Positions 17,809-31,624 of a stretch of DNA of 64,000 nt are shown here, one piece after another (the stretch's first letter is position 1; every line of letters starts with the position of its first letter). The notes under the pieces were generated by a model. It saw only the letters and a list, made by a program, of their open reading frames with translations. It ran no database searches and was not told the origin of the DNA. Source of the DNA: Myxococcota bacterium (GTDB lineage: Bacteria > Myxococcota_A > UBA9160 > UBA4427); NCBI GenBank assembly GCA_965250285.1, contig OZ252299.1, positions 4,960,001 to 5,024,000 of the forward strand, written 5' to 3'. The position numbers and the translations under genes are program-made.

Positions 17809-18327
17809 TCACTCGACTCGCGTCTCGCCCCCAGGCACCGGTTCGCCGTGCGGCTCGGCGCCGGTGCGCACCTCGAGAAGCTCCAGACCGAGAGCGACGC
17901 GATCGCCGGCCTCGGGGTTGCACCATGCGACCCGGGCGATGGCCTCGAGCCGCGCTCGTCCGTCGACCTCGCGCACGGTGACGCGCAGCGAGGCGCCCAC
18001 GTCGTGGGTCTCACGGGCCAGCATGCACAGGCCGCCCCGAGATTCGTTCGCCGTGAAGCCGACGGCGCTGTGCTGGCTGGCGTCGCAGCGCGGGTACGGG
18101 CTGTACTCGACCATGCGCACGACCGGGCTTCGCTTCCACGCCCTTCGCGCCATCGAGCCACCCAGCTGGTCGACATCGGGGTCGAGGGCGAGGTCGAGCT
18201 CTTCGTAGGTCGATTGGCCGCGCATCAGCATCGAGTTCGGATCGCTCACCGAGTCATCTCCGTCGTTCGGCATGTCGCTCGTCATCGCTTCGAGAAAGGG
18301 AAGGTCGCGCTCGCGGACAGCGTTCAT
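17809..18327 (-). CDS. PilZ-domain protein (putative c-di-GMP receptor)
   Basis: RRAWKR (RxxxR) and NESRGG (D/NxSxxG) motifs, ARVAWC..LGLE barrel end; ATGA overlap with the HD-GYP gene. Start could be a downstream Met. Confidence 0.78.
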   Translation of the reverse strand: MNAVRERDLPFLEAMTSDMPNDGDDSVSDPNSMLMRGQSTYEELDLALDPDVDQLGGSMARRAWKRSPVVRMVEYSPYPRCDASQHSAVGFTANESRGGLCMLARETHDVGASLRVTVREVDGRARLEAIARVAWCNPEAGDRVALGLELLEVRTGAEPHGEPVPGGETRVE

Positions 18328-19663: not shown

Positions 19664-19680
19664 AGCAAGGGCCGTGCCCA
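19664..19680 (-). promoter_or_regulatory. sigma54 (-24/-12) promoter
   Basis: Minus strand reads TGGGCACGGCCCTTGCT (GG-N10-GC, with GGCACG and TTGC), 75 nt upstream of the HD-GYP start. Confidence 0.8.
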
Positions 19681-19778: not shown

Positions 19779-19893
19779 CCGTTCCGATCGGAACGGTGCG
19801 TCGGGGAACGTGGCCCAAGTCACCGGAAAGATTGGTGTTTCGGGGATCGTACCGATCGGAACATCGCGCCGGCGCGCATGTTCGGATCCGAAC
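19779..19893. promoter_or_regulatory. three related palindromes, candidate enhancer (UAS) sites
   Basis: GTTCCGATCGGAAC (19781-94, inside the perfect 18-mer 19779-96), GTACCGATCGGAAC (19849-62), GTTCGGATCCGAAC (19880-93). Confidence 0.6.
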
Positions 19894-19903
19894 GCGCAGG
19901 GAC

Positions 19904-21331
19904 TCAGTCGCCGGGCGGCGCCACCCCGAGCTTGTCCATCTTCAGCTTCAGCACCCGGCGCGTGAGGCCGAGCATCTCGGCGGCCCGGGTCTGGTTCCAG
20001 TCAGCCTGCTCGAGCGCCTCGCGCAGCATGGTCTCTTCGAAGCGCGCGACTGCGTCCTCGAAGCCGATCCGCCCCTGGCGCCAGTCTTCGCGCAGCGCCT
20101 CGTCGCTCCCGGCCCGGTGGATCGCCTCAGGAAGATGAGCCAGATCGATCGGGCCGCCTTCGCTCAGCGCAAGGCCGTGCTCGATTGCGTTCTCGAGCTC
20201 ACGGACATTGCCGGGCCAGGGGTACGACTCGAGCGCGGCGCGTGCCGGCCGTGAGAGTCGCGGTCGTTCGGGCGCGGCCTCTTCGGGCTTCGCGTCGCCG
20301 TCGGCCGCCCCGGTGTCGGCATGGGAATGGGCATGCGCGACGCCGCGCTCGATGAAGACGCCGGCGAGCAGGGCGATGTCTTCGCGCCGCTCGCGCAGCG
20401 GCGGCAGGCCCAGGGGCACGACGTTGATCCGATAGAAGAGATCCTCGCGAAAACGCCCCTCTTCGACCTCCTTCTTCAGGTCGCGGTGGGTCGCCGCGAT
20501 GACGCGCACGTCGACGGCGACCTCGTCGCTCGATCCGACGCGTTGGACGACGCGCTCCTGCAGCGCGCGCAGTAGCTTGACCTGCACGTCGGCCGGCAGC
20601 TCGCCGATCTCGTCGAGCAGCAGCGTGCCCCTGTGCGCCGCCTCGAAGCGGCCGATGCGGCGCTCATGGGCCCCGGTGAAGGCGCCGCGTTCGTGGCCGA
20701 AGAGCTCGCTCTCGACGAGATCGCGAGGGATCGCGCCGCAGTTGACCGCCACGAACGGGCCGTCGCCGCGGGGGGAGAGGCCGTGGATCGCCCGGGCAGC
20801 GAGCTCTTTGCCCGTGCCGCTCTCACCCGTCAGCAGCACCGTCGCGCGGGCCTTTGCGATTCGCTCGATGTCGTGGAAGACCGCGCGCATCGCGGGACTG
20901 CGGCCCACCATCTCGCCGAGTCGCTGGCGATCTTCGACCTCGTCCCGCAGACGGACGACTTCGGCCTCGAGGGCGCGATGTTCGAGCAGCTGGCGCACCT
21001 TGATGCGCAGGGCGTCGAGCTCGAAGGGCTTCGTGACGAAGTCGCGAGCCCCGAGCTTCATCGCCTCGACAGCGACGGCCACCGTGTTCGTGGCCGTGAG
21101 GACGACGACCGGGATCGGCAGCCCGCGCTCAGCCAGCTCGGCGAGCAGCTCGAGACCGTTTCGGCCCGGCATCATCACGTCGAGCAGCACGAGGTCGGGT
21201 GCCCTCTGCCCGATCGACTCGAGCGCGGCATCGACGCCGTCCGCCGTCTCGACCTCGCACTCGCTCTTGAGCAGCATGCGAAGCGACTCGCGGACAGCCG
21301 GTTCGTCGTCGACCACCAGAACGCGGGACAT
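19904..21331 (-). CDS. sigma54-dependent response regulator (NtrC/AtoC family, REC-AAA+-Fis HTH)
   Basis: LLDVMMPG, GESGTGKE, ESELFGHERGAFTGA, LLLDEIGE, WPGNVREL, NQTRAAEMLG. Confidence 0.96.
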   Translation of the reverse strand: MSRVLVVDDEPAVRESLRMLLKSECEVETADGVDAALESIGQRAPDLVLLDVMMPGRNGLELLAELAERGLPIPVVVLTATNTVAVAVEAMKLGARDFVTKPFELDALRIKVRQLLEHRALEAEVVRLRDEVEDRQRLGEMVGRSPAMRAVFHDIERIAKARATVLLTGESGTGKELAARAIHGLSPRGDGPFVAVNCGAIPRDLVESELFGHERGAFTGAHERRIGRFEAAHRGTLLLDEIGELPADVQVKLLRALQERVVQRVGSSDEVAVDVRVIAATHRDLKKEVEEGRFREDLFYRINVVPLGLPPLRERREDIALLAGVFIERGVAHAHSHADTGAADGDAKPEEAAPERPRLSRPARAALESYPWPGNVRELENAIEHGLALSEGGPIDLAHLPEAIHRAGSDEALREDWRQGRIGFEDAVARFEETMLREALEQADWNQTRAAEMLGLTRRVLKLKMDKLGVAPPGD

Positions 21332-21471
21332 CCACGGCAAGCTACCACAGGGCGTCGGCGCGACGAGCCGTGACGCGCGCGCGCCGGCTCGGCTCGTCGT
21401 GTTCGGCTTCGCTTTGTCGGTCGAACGGTCCGGTTCTCGGTCCGGCTCGCGGCGCGGGGGGCGCCGCGCGC

Positions 21472-21548
21472 TTCACGCGACGGGCGCCACGCGTTTCACG
21501 CTGCGGGCGCCACGCGTTTTCACGCTGCGGGCGCCACGCGTGTCACGC
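21472..21548. repeat. 23-24 bp tandem repeat, about 3.3 copies
   Basis: TTCACGC(GA/TG)CGGGCGCCACGCGT units; the last partial copy contains the stop codon of the upstream fusion gene. Confidence 0.85.
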
Positions 21549-24254
21549 GGCAGGCAGCTCGACGACGAGCACGCTCTCGCCGGCCTCGGCTTCGTCGACC
21601 GAGAGGTCGCCGCCCTGCGACTCGACCAGTCGCTTGGCGAGCACCAGGTCGAGCATCGTCAGGTCGGGCACCGTCCCCTCGCCGTTGCCCGCCGGCACGC
21701 CGCCGTCGGCCGGGGCGCCTGGCTCGGCTGCGCGGGTGTGTCGGATGAGCACGCGCACCGAGGGTTCGCCTCCGTGGCCGCGCTCTGTGTACTTCGAGGC
21801 GAGGTACACGTCACCGCGCTCCGAGGCCTGCTCGATCGCGCGGTCGAGCAGCCCGGCGATCGCGTCTTCGACCTGCTCGGCGTCGGCGCGCACCATCGGC
21901 TGGGTGTGATCGAGCTCCTTGAGCACGAGCAGTCGCCGCGACTGAATCACGGGTCGGCGTTCGTCGAGCAGCCGATCGAGCAGGCGGGCGATGTCGACGG
22001 GTTCGGCCTTGCGCTGGCCCTCGGCCAACGACTGCAAGCGCGAGACGACGCGGTCGATGCGCTGAACGTCCTGCACGACAAGCTCGCGGAAGTGCGTGCG
22101 GAACTCGGGGTCGTCGTAGTGGTCGGGTAGCAGCTCTGAAAAGGTGCGGATCGACACCAACGGGTTGCGCACCTCGTGCGCGATGGCGCCGACGAGCTCA
22201 TAGAGGTCGGGGTCGATGCCGTCTTCACGGGCGGGTGGCGGCGCATTGGCCCCGCGCGTGGCGTCCTGATCGAAGGGCTCGTCGAACGGCAGGGCCTCCT
22301 CGGCCAGCTGGTGCGCGACGGCGTCGCCCTCGGCGGCGTCGGGGAGGGGGCGGACCGGCGGCGCAAGTGGCTCGACGTCGGGCAGCAGCTCGGCGACCGG
22401 GCTCGTCGCGGGTTCGAGATCGGAGCGGGCGTCGATGGGGCCGGTCTGGACGGCGAACGGCTCGGGGTCTTCGATCAGCTCGACGTCTGCGAAGAGCTCG
22501 TCGAGGTCGTCCTCATCGCCGATCGGCTCGGCGCCGATCGATGACCCCAGGTGATCGTCGGGCGACGCTTCGACGGCCACCGGTGACGCCTGTTCGCCGA
22601 GCGGCGACGCCTCCTCTGCGAACGGCGAAGCTTCTTCTCCGAGCGGTGACGCGTGTTCGCCCAGCGGTGACGCCTGTTCGCCGAGCGGGGACGGTTCGGC
22701 GTCGAGCAGCTCGGCCTGGGGGAGCCAAGCGTCGTCGTCGGCTTCGAGATCGTCGTCGAAGCCTTCGTCGGGAAAGAGGTCTTCCTCTTCATCGGCCTCG
22801 ATCCCGGCTTCGAGCTCGACCGATGCGGCGTGATCCGCGACGAGCGGCGCGCGAAGCTCGTCGTCGAGGGCTTCGGCCGAGATCGGCGCGGCACCCAACG
22901 TGGCCTCGTGGCCGACGTCGAGATCGTCTTCGTGGCCCGAGCGGGCGCCGGGGTCGAGATCGGCGAGGCCGTCGATCGGTTCGCCCGCGATCGGCACCGC
23001 GAGCGTCTCGGGGCTGGGGCGCGGAAACGCCGTCGGCCGATCGATCTCGCTCTCTTCGGGGGTCGCGTCTGCGTGCCCGGCGTCCTCGAGGTGCAGACCG
23101 CGATGCGCGGTCTCGGGCTCGAGGTCGCTGCGGCCGAGTGGCTCGTCGAGCCACGGCACGTCGGCGGGGAACCGCAGGTGGATCGGCTCGATCGGGTCGG
23201 CCTGCGTGAACGACAGGGTGCGCGTCACGACGGCCTCGAGCTCGTGGAGATTGCCGGGCCAGGGATACGCCACGAGCTTGGCGAGCGCGTCGTCGCCGAA
23301 GCGGCGCGGTGACTCGCCGCGGGCGCGGGCGAGGGCAGCGGCCGTGTCGGCGACGAATGTCGTGAGGTGCGCGCGACGCTCGCGCAGCGGCGGCAAGACG
23401 ATGGTGAGACCCGACAGCGTCTCGGCCAGGCGGGTGTCGAGACCGGGCTCGAGATCGAGGTCGTGCGCGCCCGCGACGCTCGCCATGAAGCGGTGCCCGT
23501 GTCGACTCGCGCCCGCGTCGGGCAGCCCGAACTCGATCCAGTCGCGCAGACGACGCTGCAACGCGATCGGCAGACGGTCGACGTCTTCGAGGTGGAACGT
23601 GAGCAAGCCGTCGCGCGGCGCCAGGTCGCCGACGCTCGCGAGTCGCAGCAGCTCGCCGGCGCTCATGTCTTCACGACACGGAATCTGAATGAACGTGTGC
23701 TCGGGTCGGCCGCTCGATAAGTGGATGGTGCGTGCGAGCAGCCCGCGCCCCGTGCCCGCCTCCCCGTGAATCAGCACCGGCACCCGGGCGAGGTGCGGGT
23801 CGAGCGCGCGCATCATCTCGGGCAGCTCGAGATCGCCGAACCAGCGCGCGAAGCGCGCCTGCACCTCGGCGCGCCCCTGCCGCGCGCTGAGAGGCGAAGC
23901 GCGGCGATGCTGCACGGCGGCGCGGAGCGCCCGGCGCAGGGTTCGGGCCTCGGGCGGATGCACGAGTACGCGACCGGGGAGCGTGTCGAAGAGCCGCCGG
24001 GCTTCGTCGACGTCGCCGGCTTCGGCGAGCAGGATCCAGTCGCAGTCGGCTCCCTTCGCCGCGTGTCTGTGTACGAAGTCGAGCTCGATCTCGAAGTCGC
24101 CGCTCAGTCCGAGGACGACGACGGTCGGCGCCTCGGCTGCCTCGAGCACGCGGTCGCCGGGCGCAGCCAGTACGGCTCGCTCGCCGACACCGCTGATGCG
24201 CGCGATGGCCGCGCGGGCTTCGGCGTCTCGGTGGATGATCCAGATGCTCAGCAT
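21543..24254 (-). CDS. multidomain signalling protein: degenerate REC + degenerate sigma54 AAA+ + acidic linker + HisKA + degenerate HATPase
   Basis: Start trimmed to MLSIWIIHRD (ATG 24254). GEAGTGRG, HLEDVDRL, LPPLRER, YPWPGNLHEL; D/E-rich linker; AHEVRNPL H-box; LAKRLVESQGG. Confidence 0.85.
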   Translation of the reverse strand: MLSIWIIHRDAEARAAIARISGVGERAVLAAPGDRVLEAAEAPTVVVLGLSGDFEIELDFVHRHAAKGADCDWILLAEAGDVDEARRLFDTLPGRVLVHPPEARTLRRALRAAVQHRRASPLSARQGRAEVQARFARWFGDLELPEMMRALDPHLARVPVLIHGEAGTGRGLLARTIHLSSGRPEHTFIQIPCREDMSAGELLRLASVGDLAPRDGLLTFHLEDVDRLPIALQRRLRDWIEFGLPDAGASRHGHRFMASVAGAHDLDLEPGLDTRLAETLSGLTIVLPPLRERRAHLTTFVADTAAALARARGESPRRFGDDALAKLVAYPWPGNLHELEAVVTRTLSFTQADPIEPIHLRFPADVPWLDEPLGRSDLEPETAHRGLHLEDAGHADATPEESEIDRPTAFPRPSPETLAVPIAGEPIDGLADLDPGARSGHEDDLDVGHEATLGAAPISAEALDDELRAPLVADHAASVELEAGIEADEEEDLFPDEGFDDDLEADDDAWLPQAELLDAEPSPLGEQASPLGEHASPLGEEASPFAEEASPLGEQASPVAVEASPDDHLGSSIGAEPIGDEDDLDELFADVELIEDPEPFAVQTGPIDARSDLEPATSPVAELLPDVEPLAPPVRPLPDAAEGDAVAHQLAEEALPFDEPFDQDATRGANAPPPAREDGIDPDLYELVGAIAHEVRNPLVSIRTFSELLPDHYDDPEFRTHFRELVVQDVQRIDRVVSRLQSLAEGQRKAEPVDIARLLDRLLDERRPVIQSRRLLVLKELDHTQPMVRADAEQVEDAIAGLLDRAIEQASERGDVYLASKYTERGHGGEPSVRVLIRHTRAAEPGAPADGGVPAGNGEGTVPDLTMLDLVLAKRLVESQGGDLSVDEAEAGESVLVVELPAA
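22560..22695 (-). repeat. in-frame 21-nt repeat encoding ASPLGE(Q/H/E), about 6 copies
   Basis: PSPLGEQASPLGEHASPLGEEASPFAEEASPLGEQASPVAVEASP. Confidence 0.85.
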
Positions 24255-24732
24255 GGGTCGGGTCGGAATCAGGACCTGGCTCTCGTCGGGCGAGGGCGCA
24301 GCGAAGGTTCGACGCTCGCCGATCGAGTCACTCGACTCGACGCGAAACGCCGCTCGGCGTCCTCCAGAAGTGGTGTGGAACAGTCCTTCGTGGCGAAGCA
24401 CGTGTGAGCGCGCGGAAGATGATGCGCGCTCGTCGGCAACCGCTGCGCAGCGAGCGTGCAGGTGCTCTCCCGGCGCTCGATGCTTCGCGTGCGATCGGAA
24501 CCGGCGCTCGGTTCGGCTCGTGCCCCGGCTCCTCCCAGGCGGTCGGTGATGGGCTGTGTGTGGGCCACGCGTGTCATGCGAGTGTGCGGCCAGAGTACCC
24601 GAATCGGGGCCAGGCATGGCGCGCCGAAGGGCGGCCCGCAGGGCCCGCGGGGGGCCTCTGGGCGTCAGCCTCGGTAGGATGGGATGGTCCCGCTTCGTGA
24701 ACCCCCGACCGCTGCCCGGTGCCGAGAGGTGC

Positions 24733-25773
24733 ATGCCGATTCGCCCGCTTCCTTCCTTCTCTCTCTGTCCGAGCGTCGGGGCCATCCGACGAGCGTGGGC
24801 GCTCGCCCTGGTCGCGCTGGCGCTCTCGGTGCGGCCGGCGTGGGCCATCGATCTCGAGGGCGAGTGGTACGTGCTGGTGCACTCCGAGGTGCGGCCAACG
24901 CGTGTCGCGGGCGGCATCGAAGACGCACCTCCGCCCGGCCTCGAGTACCGCGACAGCGTCTGGATCTTCGAGAAGCAGGCGGAGGGGCTCAGCTGGACGG
25001 TCATCCCCCAGGTCGCTTTCGTCGATGAGACCGGTCGCTACGAGCAGATCCACGGGGAGCGCGCGCGCTTGCGGTCCCCGTGGCGCCCGTCGGCCAGCCA
25101 GCTGGCCGAGATTCGCAAGGGGCTGGTGCTCGACAAGCGGACCGCGCGCGCGAAGATGCTGCGACGGCGCGGTGCCGATGCGTTCGAGTCGGGCGAGATG
25201 GCCCGGCCGAGCGGCGCGTCGTCGGTTTCGTTCGGGGAGCGCTGGACGCTCGAGGGGTTGGATGGCGCCCCCGTGTTCACCCACGCGGCGTCGCTCTCGT
25301 CGGGCCGCAGCGACACGCTTCGCGGCATGACGCGCTGGAGCGCCGACCAGGTCGACGAAGAGGCCGGTCGGATCGAGGGGCACTATCAGCGCGACGGCAG
25401 CGAGTTCGGTCGCTTCTACATGTTCAAGCGCGGCGATGCCCACCCGAGCGACGCCGGGTTCGCGGCCGAATCCGAGGACGAGTCGCTCTTCGGACCGGGA
25501 GGGACGGCACGCACGTCGGTCGCCTCTCTGCAGGCCTCCCTCGATGCCCTCTCGAAGGCAACTGGCGACGAGGAGACCGAGCTGCGCACCCAGATCCGCG
25601 CCGACATTCAGTCGCTCGTCGAAGCGGCGTACACGCGCCAGGGCAAGGGCGTGCGCGTGTACCGGGCCCAGATCGAGCAGATCGTCGACGAGATCGAGCG
25701 CCTCTGCGTCGTCGAGGGCGTCTCGCTCGAAGAGATCGACCGCCGCTTCGAGGCGAAGGCGCTCGGTCAGTGA
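24733..25773 (+). CDS. hypothetical exported protein
   Basis: GAGG RBS; signal peptide RRAWALALVALALSVRPAWA; beta-rich N-part and helical C-part; GC3-biased codons. Confidence 0.75.
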   Translation: MPIRPLPSFSLCPSVGAIRRAWALALVALALSVRPAWAIDLEGEWYVLVHSEVRPTRVAGGIEDAPPPGLEYRDSVWIFEKQAEGLSWTVIPQVAFVDETGRYEQIHGERARLRSPWRPSASQLAEIRKGLVLDKRTARAKMLRRRGADAFESGEMARPSGASSVSFGERWTLEGLDGAPVFTHAASLSSGRSDTLRGMTRWSADQVDEEAGRIEGHYQRDGSEFGRFYMFKRGDAHPSDAGFAAESEDESLFGPGGTARTSVASLQASLDALSKATGDEETELRTQIRADIQSLVEAAYTRQGKGVRVYRAQIEQIVDEIERLCVVEGVSLEEIDRRFEAKALGQ

Positions 25774-31104: not shown

Positions 31105-31146
31105 GGGGCCGAAGGCCGTGCACGCGGGGCCGAAGGCCGCGCACGC
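31105..31146. repeat. 21-bp direct repeat, 2 copies
   Basis: GGGGCCGAAGGCCG(T/C)GCACGC twice in an intergenic region. Confidence 0.75.
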
Positions 31147-31195
31147 GAAGGGGCGCCGACCGGGTCGTTTCGAACCCGGCGGCGGAGGACCTCGA

Positions 31196-31624
31196 TTGGA
31201 TCTCGAGTCGCGACTGGCGGACCAGGGCCGAGCCCTGGCCGAGCGCGAGGCGAAGCACGCCGACGCGCTGGTGCGTGCCCGTGCGCTCGCCGATGCGCTG
31301 CACGCGGAGGTCGCCCGCGCGATCGACGCCTATCACCGGGAGACGGCCGAGGCCCCCCAGCTCGCGCTTGCCCTCGGAGACGTGAAGCACGATGACAAGC
31401 ACCTGCACGCGTTCGAGTTCGACGTGCGGCGGGGGCGCGTGCGCGTGATCGTCGTCGTGAAGAGCCGGGGCGAAGCGACGCTCGTCGGGCCCTTCCACAT
31501 GGGCCGCGACGAGGGTCCGTGTCGGCGTGTGCCCTTCAGCGACGACGATGCCGTCGACGACACGCTGCGCGACGCCCTCGGCGATCTGCTGGAGAGCTTT
31601 CTCGAAGAGGCGACGGCCCGCTGA
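31196..31624 (+). CDS. hypothetical protein
   Basis: GGAGGA RBS plus TTG; coding-like codon bias; TGATG coupling to the next gene. Confidence 0.7.
   Translation: MDLESRLADQGRALAEREAKHADALVRARALADALHAEVARAIDAYHRETAEAPQLALALGDVKHDDKHLHAFEFDVRRGRVRVIVVVKSRGEATLVGPFHMGRDEGPCRRVPFSDDDAVDDTLRDALGDLLESFLEEATAR

Follow-up and report, generated by a model that had tools for sequence, protein, structure and literature searches.

Pseudo-histidine-kinases are known singly, as in the cases of DivL, ChpT, PhyT, NifL and RetS, and what such a protein does cannot be read from its sequence. Here we analyzed a protein of this kind, encoded by gene P0001 in a stretch of 64,000 nucleotides (the window; positions 4,960,001 to 5,024,000 of contig OZ252299.1, assembly GCA_965250285.1) from a Myxococcota bacterium of the class UBA9160, for which the name Vahlivitia has been introduced (10.64898/2026.07.10.737566). 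The gene (21543..24254, minus strand, ATG at 24254, stop at 21543) encodes a chain of 903 amino acids with the order pseudo-receiver, pseudo-AAA+, linker, DHp and pseudo-CA, hereafter the fusion. Across the family the H-box motif of the DHp is kept almost only together with two neighbouring response regulators, which makes it likely that the fusion is a phosphatase acting on them.

PhyT of Sphingomonas, ChpT and Spo0B share with the fusion a His-bearing DHp next to a degenerate CA domain. PhyT also has the Asn four residues behind the His (H+4) and, directly behind the His (H+1), a non-acidic residue as in some orthologues of the fusion (PMC5898713). Unlike these three proteins, the fusion is soluble, is joined to a pseudo-receiver and to the pseudo-AAA+ domain of a bacterial enhancer-binding protein (bEBP), is paired with an intact receiver-less kinase of the same specificity, and has no known donor receiver. 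DrBphP and the E372 variants of CrdS likewise keep the H+4 residue and can dispense with the H+1 acid, and PleC and DivJ are described as two kinase-like proteins working on one regulator, DivK (PMC4211667), the arrangement proposed here. However, DrBphP, CrdS and PleC keep a nucleotide-binding CA domain, whereas the fusion has lost the CA residues and has a dead sigma54-activator module as input. DivL of Caulobacter resembles the fusion in its DHp-CA fold (4q20, Z 17.4, root mean square deviation (rmsd) 3.6, 199 aligned residues), in being kinase-inactive and, as proposed for the fusion, in being devoted to a regulator that a different kinase phosphorylates. It carries a Tyr for the His and has no phosphatase activity, while in the fusion the His and the H+4 Asn are selected when a partner exists. 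In the NifL-NifA pair a kinase-like DH-GHKL protein acts on a sigma54 activator, and the fusion has both domain types in one chain; NifL, however, binds ADP/ATP and acts in trans on an active NifA, whereas the AAA+ domain of the fusion is itself dead and its target has a receiver. RetS and GacS are two DHp-bearing proteins of one pathway, one of them inhibitory, as proposed for the fusion and the kinase P0004 described below; RetS, however, is equipped with sensor domains and working receivers, and a fusion-P0004 heterodimer is hypothetical. The atypical bEBPs NtrX, VpsR, FleQ and FleT are also REC-AAA+ scaffolds that have lost some activator motifs, and FleT, which is described as a partner of FleQ, lacks the helix-turn-helix (HTH) as the fusion does (PMC10084136). 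In contrast to them, the fusion has lost all the activator motifs together and carries a kinase-derived module in the place of the HTH. Judged from its sequence, the fusion would act like the known pseudo-histidine-kinase regulators, and yet on tested features it is neither an activator nor a receiver nor a kinase. The literature searched, which did not extend to subscription journals and supplements, contained no description of this architecture.

The chain begins with an aspartate-less pseudo-receiver (amino acids 1-118, 23901..24254; this and the following domains lie on the minus strand), in which DD is replaced by HR, the phospho-Asp by G49, and the Lys is missing; it fits the definition of such domains given in PMC12632262. 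Residue conservation was counted over 120 labelled orthologues, of which 3 have the phospho-Asp and none the Lys, so that the canonical set of receiver residues is absent. Behind it come a REC-AAA helix and a degenerate sigma54-type AAA+ core (119-290, 23385..23900; Walker A GExGTGR, Walker B LEDVD) and the AAA+ lid (291-363, 23166..23384), which retains WPGN and has no Fis HTH behind it. The Walker A Lys is found in 3/120 orthologues and is an Arg in the other 117; the GAFTGA loop is deleted in P0001 by comparison with NtrC1, and the arginine-finger positions vary. Hence the bEBP AAA+ fold is there, and Walker A Lys, GAFTGA, arginine fingers and Fis HTH are all lacking. A disordered linker rich in acidic residues, Pro and Ala (364-681, 22212..23165) leads to the HisKA DHp hairpin (682-748, 22011..22211), which carries His693 (22176-22178) and the H+4 Asn697 (22164-22166). 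The GHKL/CA fold (752-903, 21546..22001) has neither the first N-box Asn nor the G1 Asp nor the G2 glycines; alignment with an intact kinase of the same genome places G801, H839 and D869 at the positions of the first N-box Asn, the G1 Asp and the last G2 Gly. Among the orthologues the first N-box Asn and the G1 Asp occur in 0/120 (F, Y or H at the latter in 109), the last G2 Gly occurs in 5, and the CA lid varies between 10 and 30 residues. Arg838, next to the lost G1 Asp, is invariant (120/120); like the Walker A Arg, it shows fixation and not drift.

Pfam profiles found Sigma54_activ_2 (157-290), AAA_lid_14 (291-361) and HisKA (686-744; 39.3 bits for a cut-off of 26.9) in P0001, and there was no Pfam match to Response_reg, HTH_8 or HATPase_c. 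In an AlphaFold2 model built from an alignment of 35 sequences, the receiver, AAA+, DHp and CA folds were all confident, and the predicted local distance difference test (pLDDT) fell below 50 across most of 370-678. The DHp-CA model matched the CA domain of VanS (Z 18.5, rmsd 1.7, 127 aligned), which identifies a GHKL kinase CA fold, and the N-terminal half folds like NtrC1 and like NtrC4, NtrX, FleQ and VpsR (Z about 19-21 for these last four; NtrC4 21.5, NtrX 20.1). P0001 thus lacks the residues that serve ATP binding in its CA, phosphorylation of a receiver, contact with sigma54 and binding of DNA. An initial annotation of the gene had called it a multi-pseudoenzyme scaffold; every motif quoted there is present, the profile scan proposed there returned the matches just given, and the losses proved to be family-wide over the 120 orthologues. 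Its linker of roughly 350 residues has to be shortened to about 318. This is still the longest among 125 orthologues (range 23-318, median 84); the linker is expanded in the lineage of the window and contains a 21-bp tandem repeat (EQASPLG-like, 22581-22693). The proteins of the closest relatives are likewise long, with 943 and 886 residues.

The two regulators encoded next to the fusion on the same strand are an intact NtrC-type sigma54 activator, P0002 (REC-AAA+-Fis, 19904..21331), the putative main substrate, and a REC-HD-GYP protein, P0003 (18324..19589), likely a cyclic di-GMP (c-di-GMP) phosphodiesterase and the candidate second substrate. From 210 partly redundant loci, 125 orthologues of the fusion were left after removal of duplicates and of 3 genes open at the 3′ end, and they were labelled as activator present (106), absent (14), unclassified (4) or second copy (1). 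Six of the activator-present labels were set by hand (one activator 14 kb off, two split, three cut at a contig end). Absence refers to a search of the whole genome, in which the best matches reached at most 384 bits as against at least 450 for orthologues. With the activator present, the His is kept in 105/106 genes, the H+4 Asn in 106/106 and the H+1 acid in 97/106 (A in 6, Q in 3), while with the activator absent the His is kept in 5/14 and the Asn in 6/14. Concomitantly, the mean identity of the DHp to its consensus decreases from 0.65 to 0.39, and that of the other domains only by 0.04-0.11. When the DHp was left out of the tree, the 14 activator-less genes fell into seven separate clades, with His losses in six; a sign test done by hand gave 0.5^6 = 0.016. 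The only His loss beside an intact activator, a CCC codon, was seen at locus L120. Moreover, three of the five activator-less genes that keep the His retain another cognate receiver: at L124 (6268-6636, minus strand) the activator is cut to a stand-alone receiver of 123 residues, its Asp intact, immediately behind the fusion, and G089 and G123 retain the REC-HD-GYP orthologue.

The sister order gave the same picture. There the fusion lies in the same synteny at 14/14 loci, and the activator, REC-HD-GYP and PilZ genes are absent between it and tatC. The activator was found in 0/32 genomes of this order, where no orthologue of the kinase P0004 was found either, and the fusion genes have the His in 2/14 and the H+4 Asn in 0/14. 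The proposal that the His is the intact chemistry, aimed at a partner, is supported where the activator is present but not for the whole family, since the His is lost in 10/120 labelled orthologues and 12/14 genes of the sister order. What the initial annotation had missed is that the His decays repeatedly upon loss of the partner regulator and the dead domains stay.

Elsewhere in the genome, the best match of a profile of the C-terminal module was the orphan kinase P0004 (G000:C1:4645207-4646604, L271:9208-10605, plus strand). It lies directly 3′ of a PBP1a-like gene and comprises a GAF-like region (by eye), HisKA and HATPase_c, with no receiver domain. From the His on, its DHp matches 22/27 consensus residues of the fusion family, the next best of 31 H-boxes matching 13. 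In its orthologues H, E and N of the H-box are present in 53/53 and the N, G1 and G2 boxes are intact. In M. xanthus, specificity residues that DHp domains share are reported to determine the partners of phosphotransfer as well as those of phosphatase activity (PMC3892784). P0004 is single-copy in 85/151 genomes of the class. Among genomes with the fusion, 77 have activator and kinase, 12 neither, 4 the activator only and none the kinase only, in a tally that leaves out one unlabelled genome and four not examined; the kinase was not found in any of the 14 activator-less genomes (the 12 of the tally and two others). A hand count over the 151 genomes of the class gave 81 with both, 57 with neither, 9 with the activator only and 4 with the kinase only, and in every one of these four the locus is at a contig end or split. 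Where the kinase is missing and a receiver is present, H and N of the fusion are kept in 7/7 cases, against 2/11 where both are missing. P0004 thus appears to be the true kinase of the activator of the window. The DHp-CA tree does not settle how the pseudokinase and the orphan kinase are related; an origin by duplication is for this reason not established, and convergence via the shared partner is possible.

The activator is well conserved (phospho-Asp, Lys, Walker A and Walker B in 97/97 orthologues, a GAFTGA/GAFTDA-type loop in 95). GAFTDA replaces GAFTGA in about half of the orthologues (48 vs 36 of 97; L031-L210). A sigma54 -24/-12 promoter (GGCAC-N5-TTGCT, 19664..19678, minus strand) lies ahead of the genes for REC-HD-GYP and a PilZ-domain protein (17809..18327, minus strand), and a sigma54 promoter was found 3′ of the activator in 77/92 loci vs 0.9% in shuffles. 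The palindrome GTTCCGATCGGAAC, present three times (19781-19794, 19849-19862 and 19880-19893), forms a likely enhancer, predicted to bind the adjacent activator; with at most 2 mismatches it precedes that promoter in 52/92 loci vs 0/460 shuffles. Upstream of the fusion itself a sigma54 promoter was found in 102/122 loci (median distance 94 bp) vs 0.6% in shuffles, and all the activator-less orthologues keep it (14/14). Furthermore, the receivers of the activator and of REC-HD-GYP have the alpha-1 motif ESLRM in common (72 and 53 distinct sequences).

We favour, with moderate confidence, the reading that the fusion is a dedicated phosphatase (or His sink) of the activator and of REC-HD-GYP, opposing the unlinked intact kinase. 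While the catalytic losses, the co-losses and the promoters are observed, we infer cognacy, the direction in which phosphate flows and a gating role of the dead domains. P0004 would autophosphorylate and then phosphorylate both receivers, and the phosphorylated activator would fire the sigma54 promoter of the REC-HD-GYP and PilZ genes. The fusion, sigma54-transcribed in most relatives, would dock both receivers via its DHp and hydrolyse the phospho-Asp with the H+4 Asn, the His assisting or serving as a sink; the pseudoREC-AAA+ and the pseudoCA would gate or localise this activity, beside a second role independent of the partners. The split pair is the simplest reading because a direct kinase is available: with an intact receiver-less kinase that has the same DHp and is co-lost with the regulator, no shuttle is needed. 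In CrdS the H+1 acid is reported to be required for the kinase activity only and the H+4 Asn (N375) for the phosphatase activity only, and dephosphorylation is normal in each of the variants E372A, D, G and Q (PMC3510030). The H+1 of partner-bearing fusions is A or Q in 9/106, vs E in 53/53 kinase orthologues, and these substitutions fall within the phosphatase-competent set of CrdS. The H+4 Asn of a phosphatase is thus present, and so are a phosphorylatable receiver and a kinase as phosphate source, both presumably cognate. The two activities of a kinase apparently reside here in two unlinked genes that share a single specificity code; in addition, a sigma54-activator domain that is dead is apparently reused as a regulatory module. 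The family provides repeated natural knock-outs that connect residues of the H-box with a particular regulator and kinase, and its three-protein system lends itself to reconstitution in vitro, which can distinguish a phosphatase from a phosphotransferase; it also marks a signalling circuit of an uncultured class of Myxococcota.

Several points weigh against the phosphatase. The CrdS variant H371A is reported to slow dephosphorylation only about fourfold (PMC3510030), and in the fusion the conservation of the His almost equals that of the Asn, beyond the need of a pure phosphatase. PhyT combines a non-acidic H+1 with an H+4 Asn and also has a degenerate CA; once regarded as a phosphatase, it turned out to be a phosphotransferase (PMC5898713), so the H-box motif does not discriminate between the two. 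The phosphatase activity of DrBphP is described as needing ATP (PMC8292422), which the CA of the fusion probably cannot bind, given its residues. Four activator-bearing genomes (G086, G130, G134, G154) have no kinase found, and the P0004 orthologues keep the N+4 in 53/53, so that P0004 itself may have both activities. In L153 and L185, HExRN persists although the search revealed no partner. No canonical sigma54 promoter was found within 300 bp of the fusion gene of the window itself, and in its genome the alpha-1 of REC-HD-GYP merely ties with one unrelated receiver in similarity to the activator (8/14). Finally, the genomes compared are drafts or metagenome-assembled genomes throughout.

The main rival and second-best reading, which we regard as possible though tentative, is a phosphotransferase of the PhyT/ChpT/Spo0B type, in which His693 would take a phosphoryl group over from a donor receiver and pass it to the activator, or would carry it from one of the two receivers to the other, and which might sequester the unphosphorylated regulator. 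It would account well for a His kept in 105/106 partner-bearing genes beside a dead CA, for which PhyT (HRxxN and a degenerate CA) is the precedent (PMC5898713), for the one docking motif common to two receivers, and for the few genomes that keep activator, His and downstream promoter with no kinase found. The receiver-less kinase with the same DHp could, however, phosphorylate the regulator directly; REC-HD-GYP is not found nearby in 24/90 activator-bearing loci (genome-wide absence checked for G017 only), and no donor hybrid kinase was identified in a search for donors that was not systematic. The ChpT-type label of the initial annotation fits the His-bearing DHp with its degenerate CA and is kept only at this second rank, an intact, co-lost kinase being available. 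ChpT and Spo0B are not among the sequence or fold matches listed, which are headed by canonical kinases, DivL and RetS, and this does not exclude homology. Somewhat more doubtful is a sensor or anti-activator resembling DivL or NifL, whose DHp would bind the regulator without chemistry while the dead AAA+ and CA domains relay a signal or block assembly of sigma54 activators. The dead domains are under purifying selection and kept in the 14 sister-order genes and the 14 partner-less genomes, and the promoter upstream of the fusion persists in the latter; in addition, NifL is reported to bind the AAA+ domain of NifA via DH and GHKL (PMC12998190), and DivL is described as having neither kinase nor phosphatase activity (PMC4211667). 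Mere binding, on the other hand, does not need a near-invariant His and H+4 Asn; DivL has a Tyr at the His position, and the GHKL domain of NifL binds nucleotide with residues that the fusion CA has lost.

An inhibitor of the RetS type, whose DHp would heterodimerise with P0004 and block or modulate its autophosphorylation, seems improbable to us. The DHp hairpins of the fusion and of P0004 are nearly identical, loop included, the kinase is missing from all 14 activator-less genomes, and the RetS-GacS DHp heterodimer is a published precedent (PMC8498467). But H and N+4 follow the receivers and not the kinase, being kept in all seven kinase-less cases with a receiver, and heterodimerisation does not require residues of the catalytic face. 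The family also invites comparison with Nla6S, a kinase with a non-canonical CA domain. That the fusion is an active kinase of this sort is very unlikely: an intact GHKL fold, the His, usually a Glu behind it and the invariant Arg838 agree with it, but the first N-box Asn and the G1 Asp are never found, the latter being replaced by bulky residues, the lid is variable, the H+1 acid is lost in 9/106 partner-bearing orthologues, and an intact kinase of the same specificity exists. An assembly artefact or a decaying pseudogene, suggested by five loci with the halves in different frames and by the unusually long and repetitive linker of the window, can be given practically no credence and is refuted by the conservation data. 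Both halves are in one frame in 197/210 loci (8 others stop at a contig edge), and the profile of the N-terminal module matches 135/151 genomes of the class, almost always in one copy. The ratio of nonsynonymous to synonymous substitution rates (dN/dS), pooled over those of 23 disjoint pairs that were less saturated, is 0.21 for the receiver, 0.23 for AAA+, 0.12 for the DHp (the lowest) and 0.21 for the CA, vs 0.56 for the linker, and G+C at third codon positions is 0.83-0.92 in the domains of P0001. The initial annotation had argued for a live gene and proposed a homolog search; that search returned one gene of the same architecture rather than two separate ones.

Lineages without the partners, and the sister order as a whole, still conserve the pseudo-receiver, pseudo-AAA+ and pseudo-CA. 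This persistence of dead domains without the partners argues that a second, phosphate-independent core role of the fusion exists besides the H-box chemistry. Speculatively, the fusion might be a class-defining, sigma54-induced feedback hub of dead enzymes: its pseudo-activator and its pseudokinase, paired in cis much as NifL and NifA are in trans, would act on sigma54 activators as a restraint or a sensor, with no chemistry involved. The phosphatase face of its DHp would then be optional, switched off at least six times independently and once in the sister order upon loss of kinase and regulator. NifL-NifA binding and the FleT-FleQ partnership serve here as leads only. Binding of c-di-GMP by the dead AAA+ domain, as in FleQ and VpsR, was considered because of the PilZ and HD-GYP neighbours, but the module persists where both genes are gone.

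The profile of the C-terminal module matched 70/401 genomes of the phylum and 0/323 outside the class. In the sister order the fusion family was detected in 27/32 genomes by profile search, where a single-query search had given 0/32. In a profile search of protein representatives, full-length family-like matches came on top and ordinary activators lower. Among database homologues HATPase_c was found in 0/87, Response_reg in 0/87 and HisKA in 77/87; databases annotate these homologues wrongly, as NtrC regulator or as kinase. The five loci with a frame break in or after the linker are L081, L109, L170, L180 and L197, where a sequencing error or a natural split may be the cause. Extra paralogues were seen at L353:5962-6888, L354:5194-6054, L355:5367-6320 and L356:1279-4665; they comprise DHp-pseudoCA proteins that stand alone and have a degenerate H-box, as well as a second, His-less full fusion at an unrelated locus.

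The conserved gene order is aminotransferase, GNAT and a hypothetical gene (upstream and divergent), then the fusion, the NtrC-type activator, REC-HD-GYP, PilZ, tatB and tatC. The divergent hypothetical gene (24556-25773, plus strand, start probably near 24700) has no Pfam match and adjoins the fusion in both orders. About 4.4 copies of a 23-bp repeat lie between fusion and activator (21453-21555). A small conserved hypothetical gene with no Pfam match (31118-31624, plus strand) stands beside an M23 peptidase gene and is syntenic across the order. Elsewhere in the genome of the window we noted three further degenerate sigma54-activator-like genes (G000:C1:2104396-2105790, 1688895-1689971 and 1920546-1922660) without GAFTGA, two of them with a Walker A Arg, which retain an HTH-like tail. 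Sigma54 promoters were also seen at G000:C1:3270145 (minus strand), 6081849 (plus) and 3476281 (plus), ahead of two pilin-like genes and one ammonium-transporter-like gene (names given by eye).

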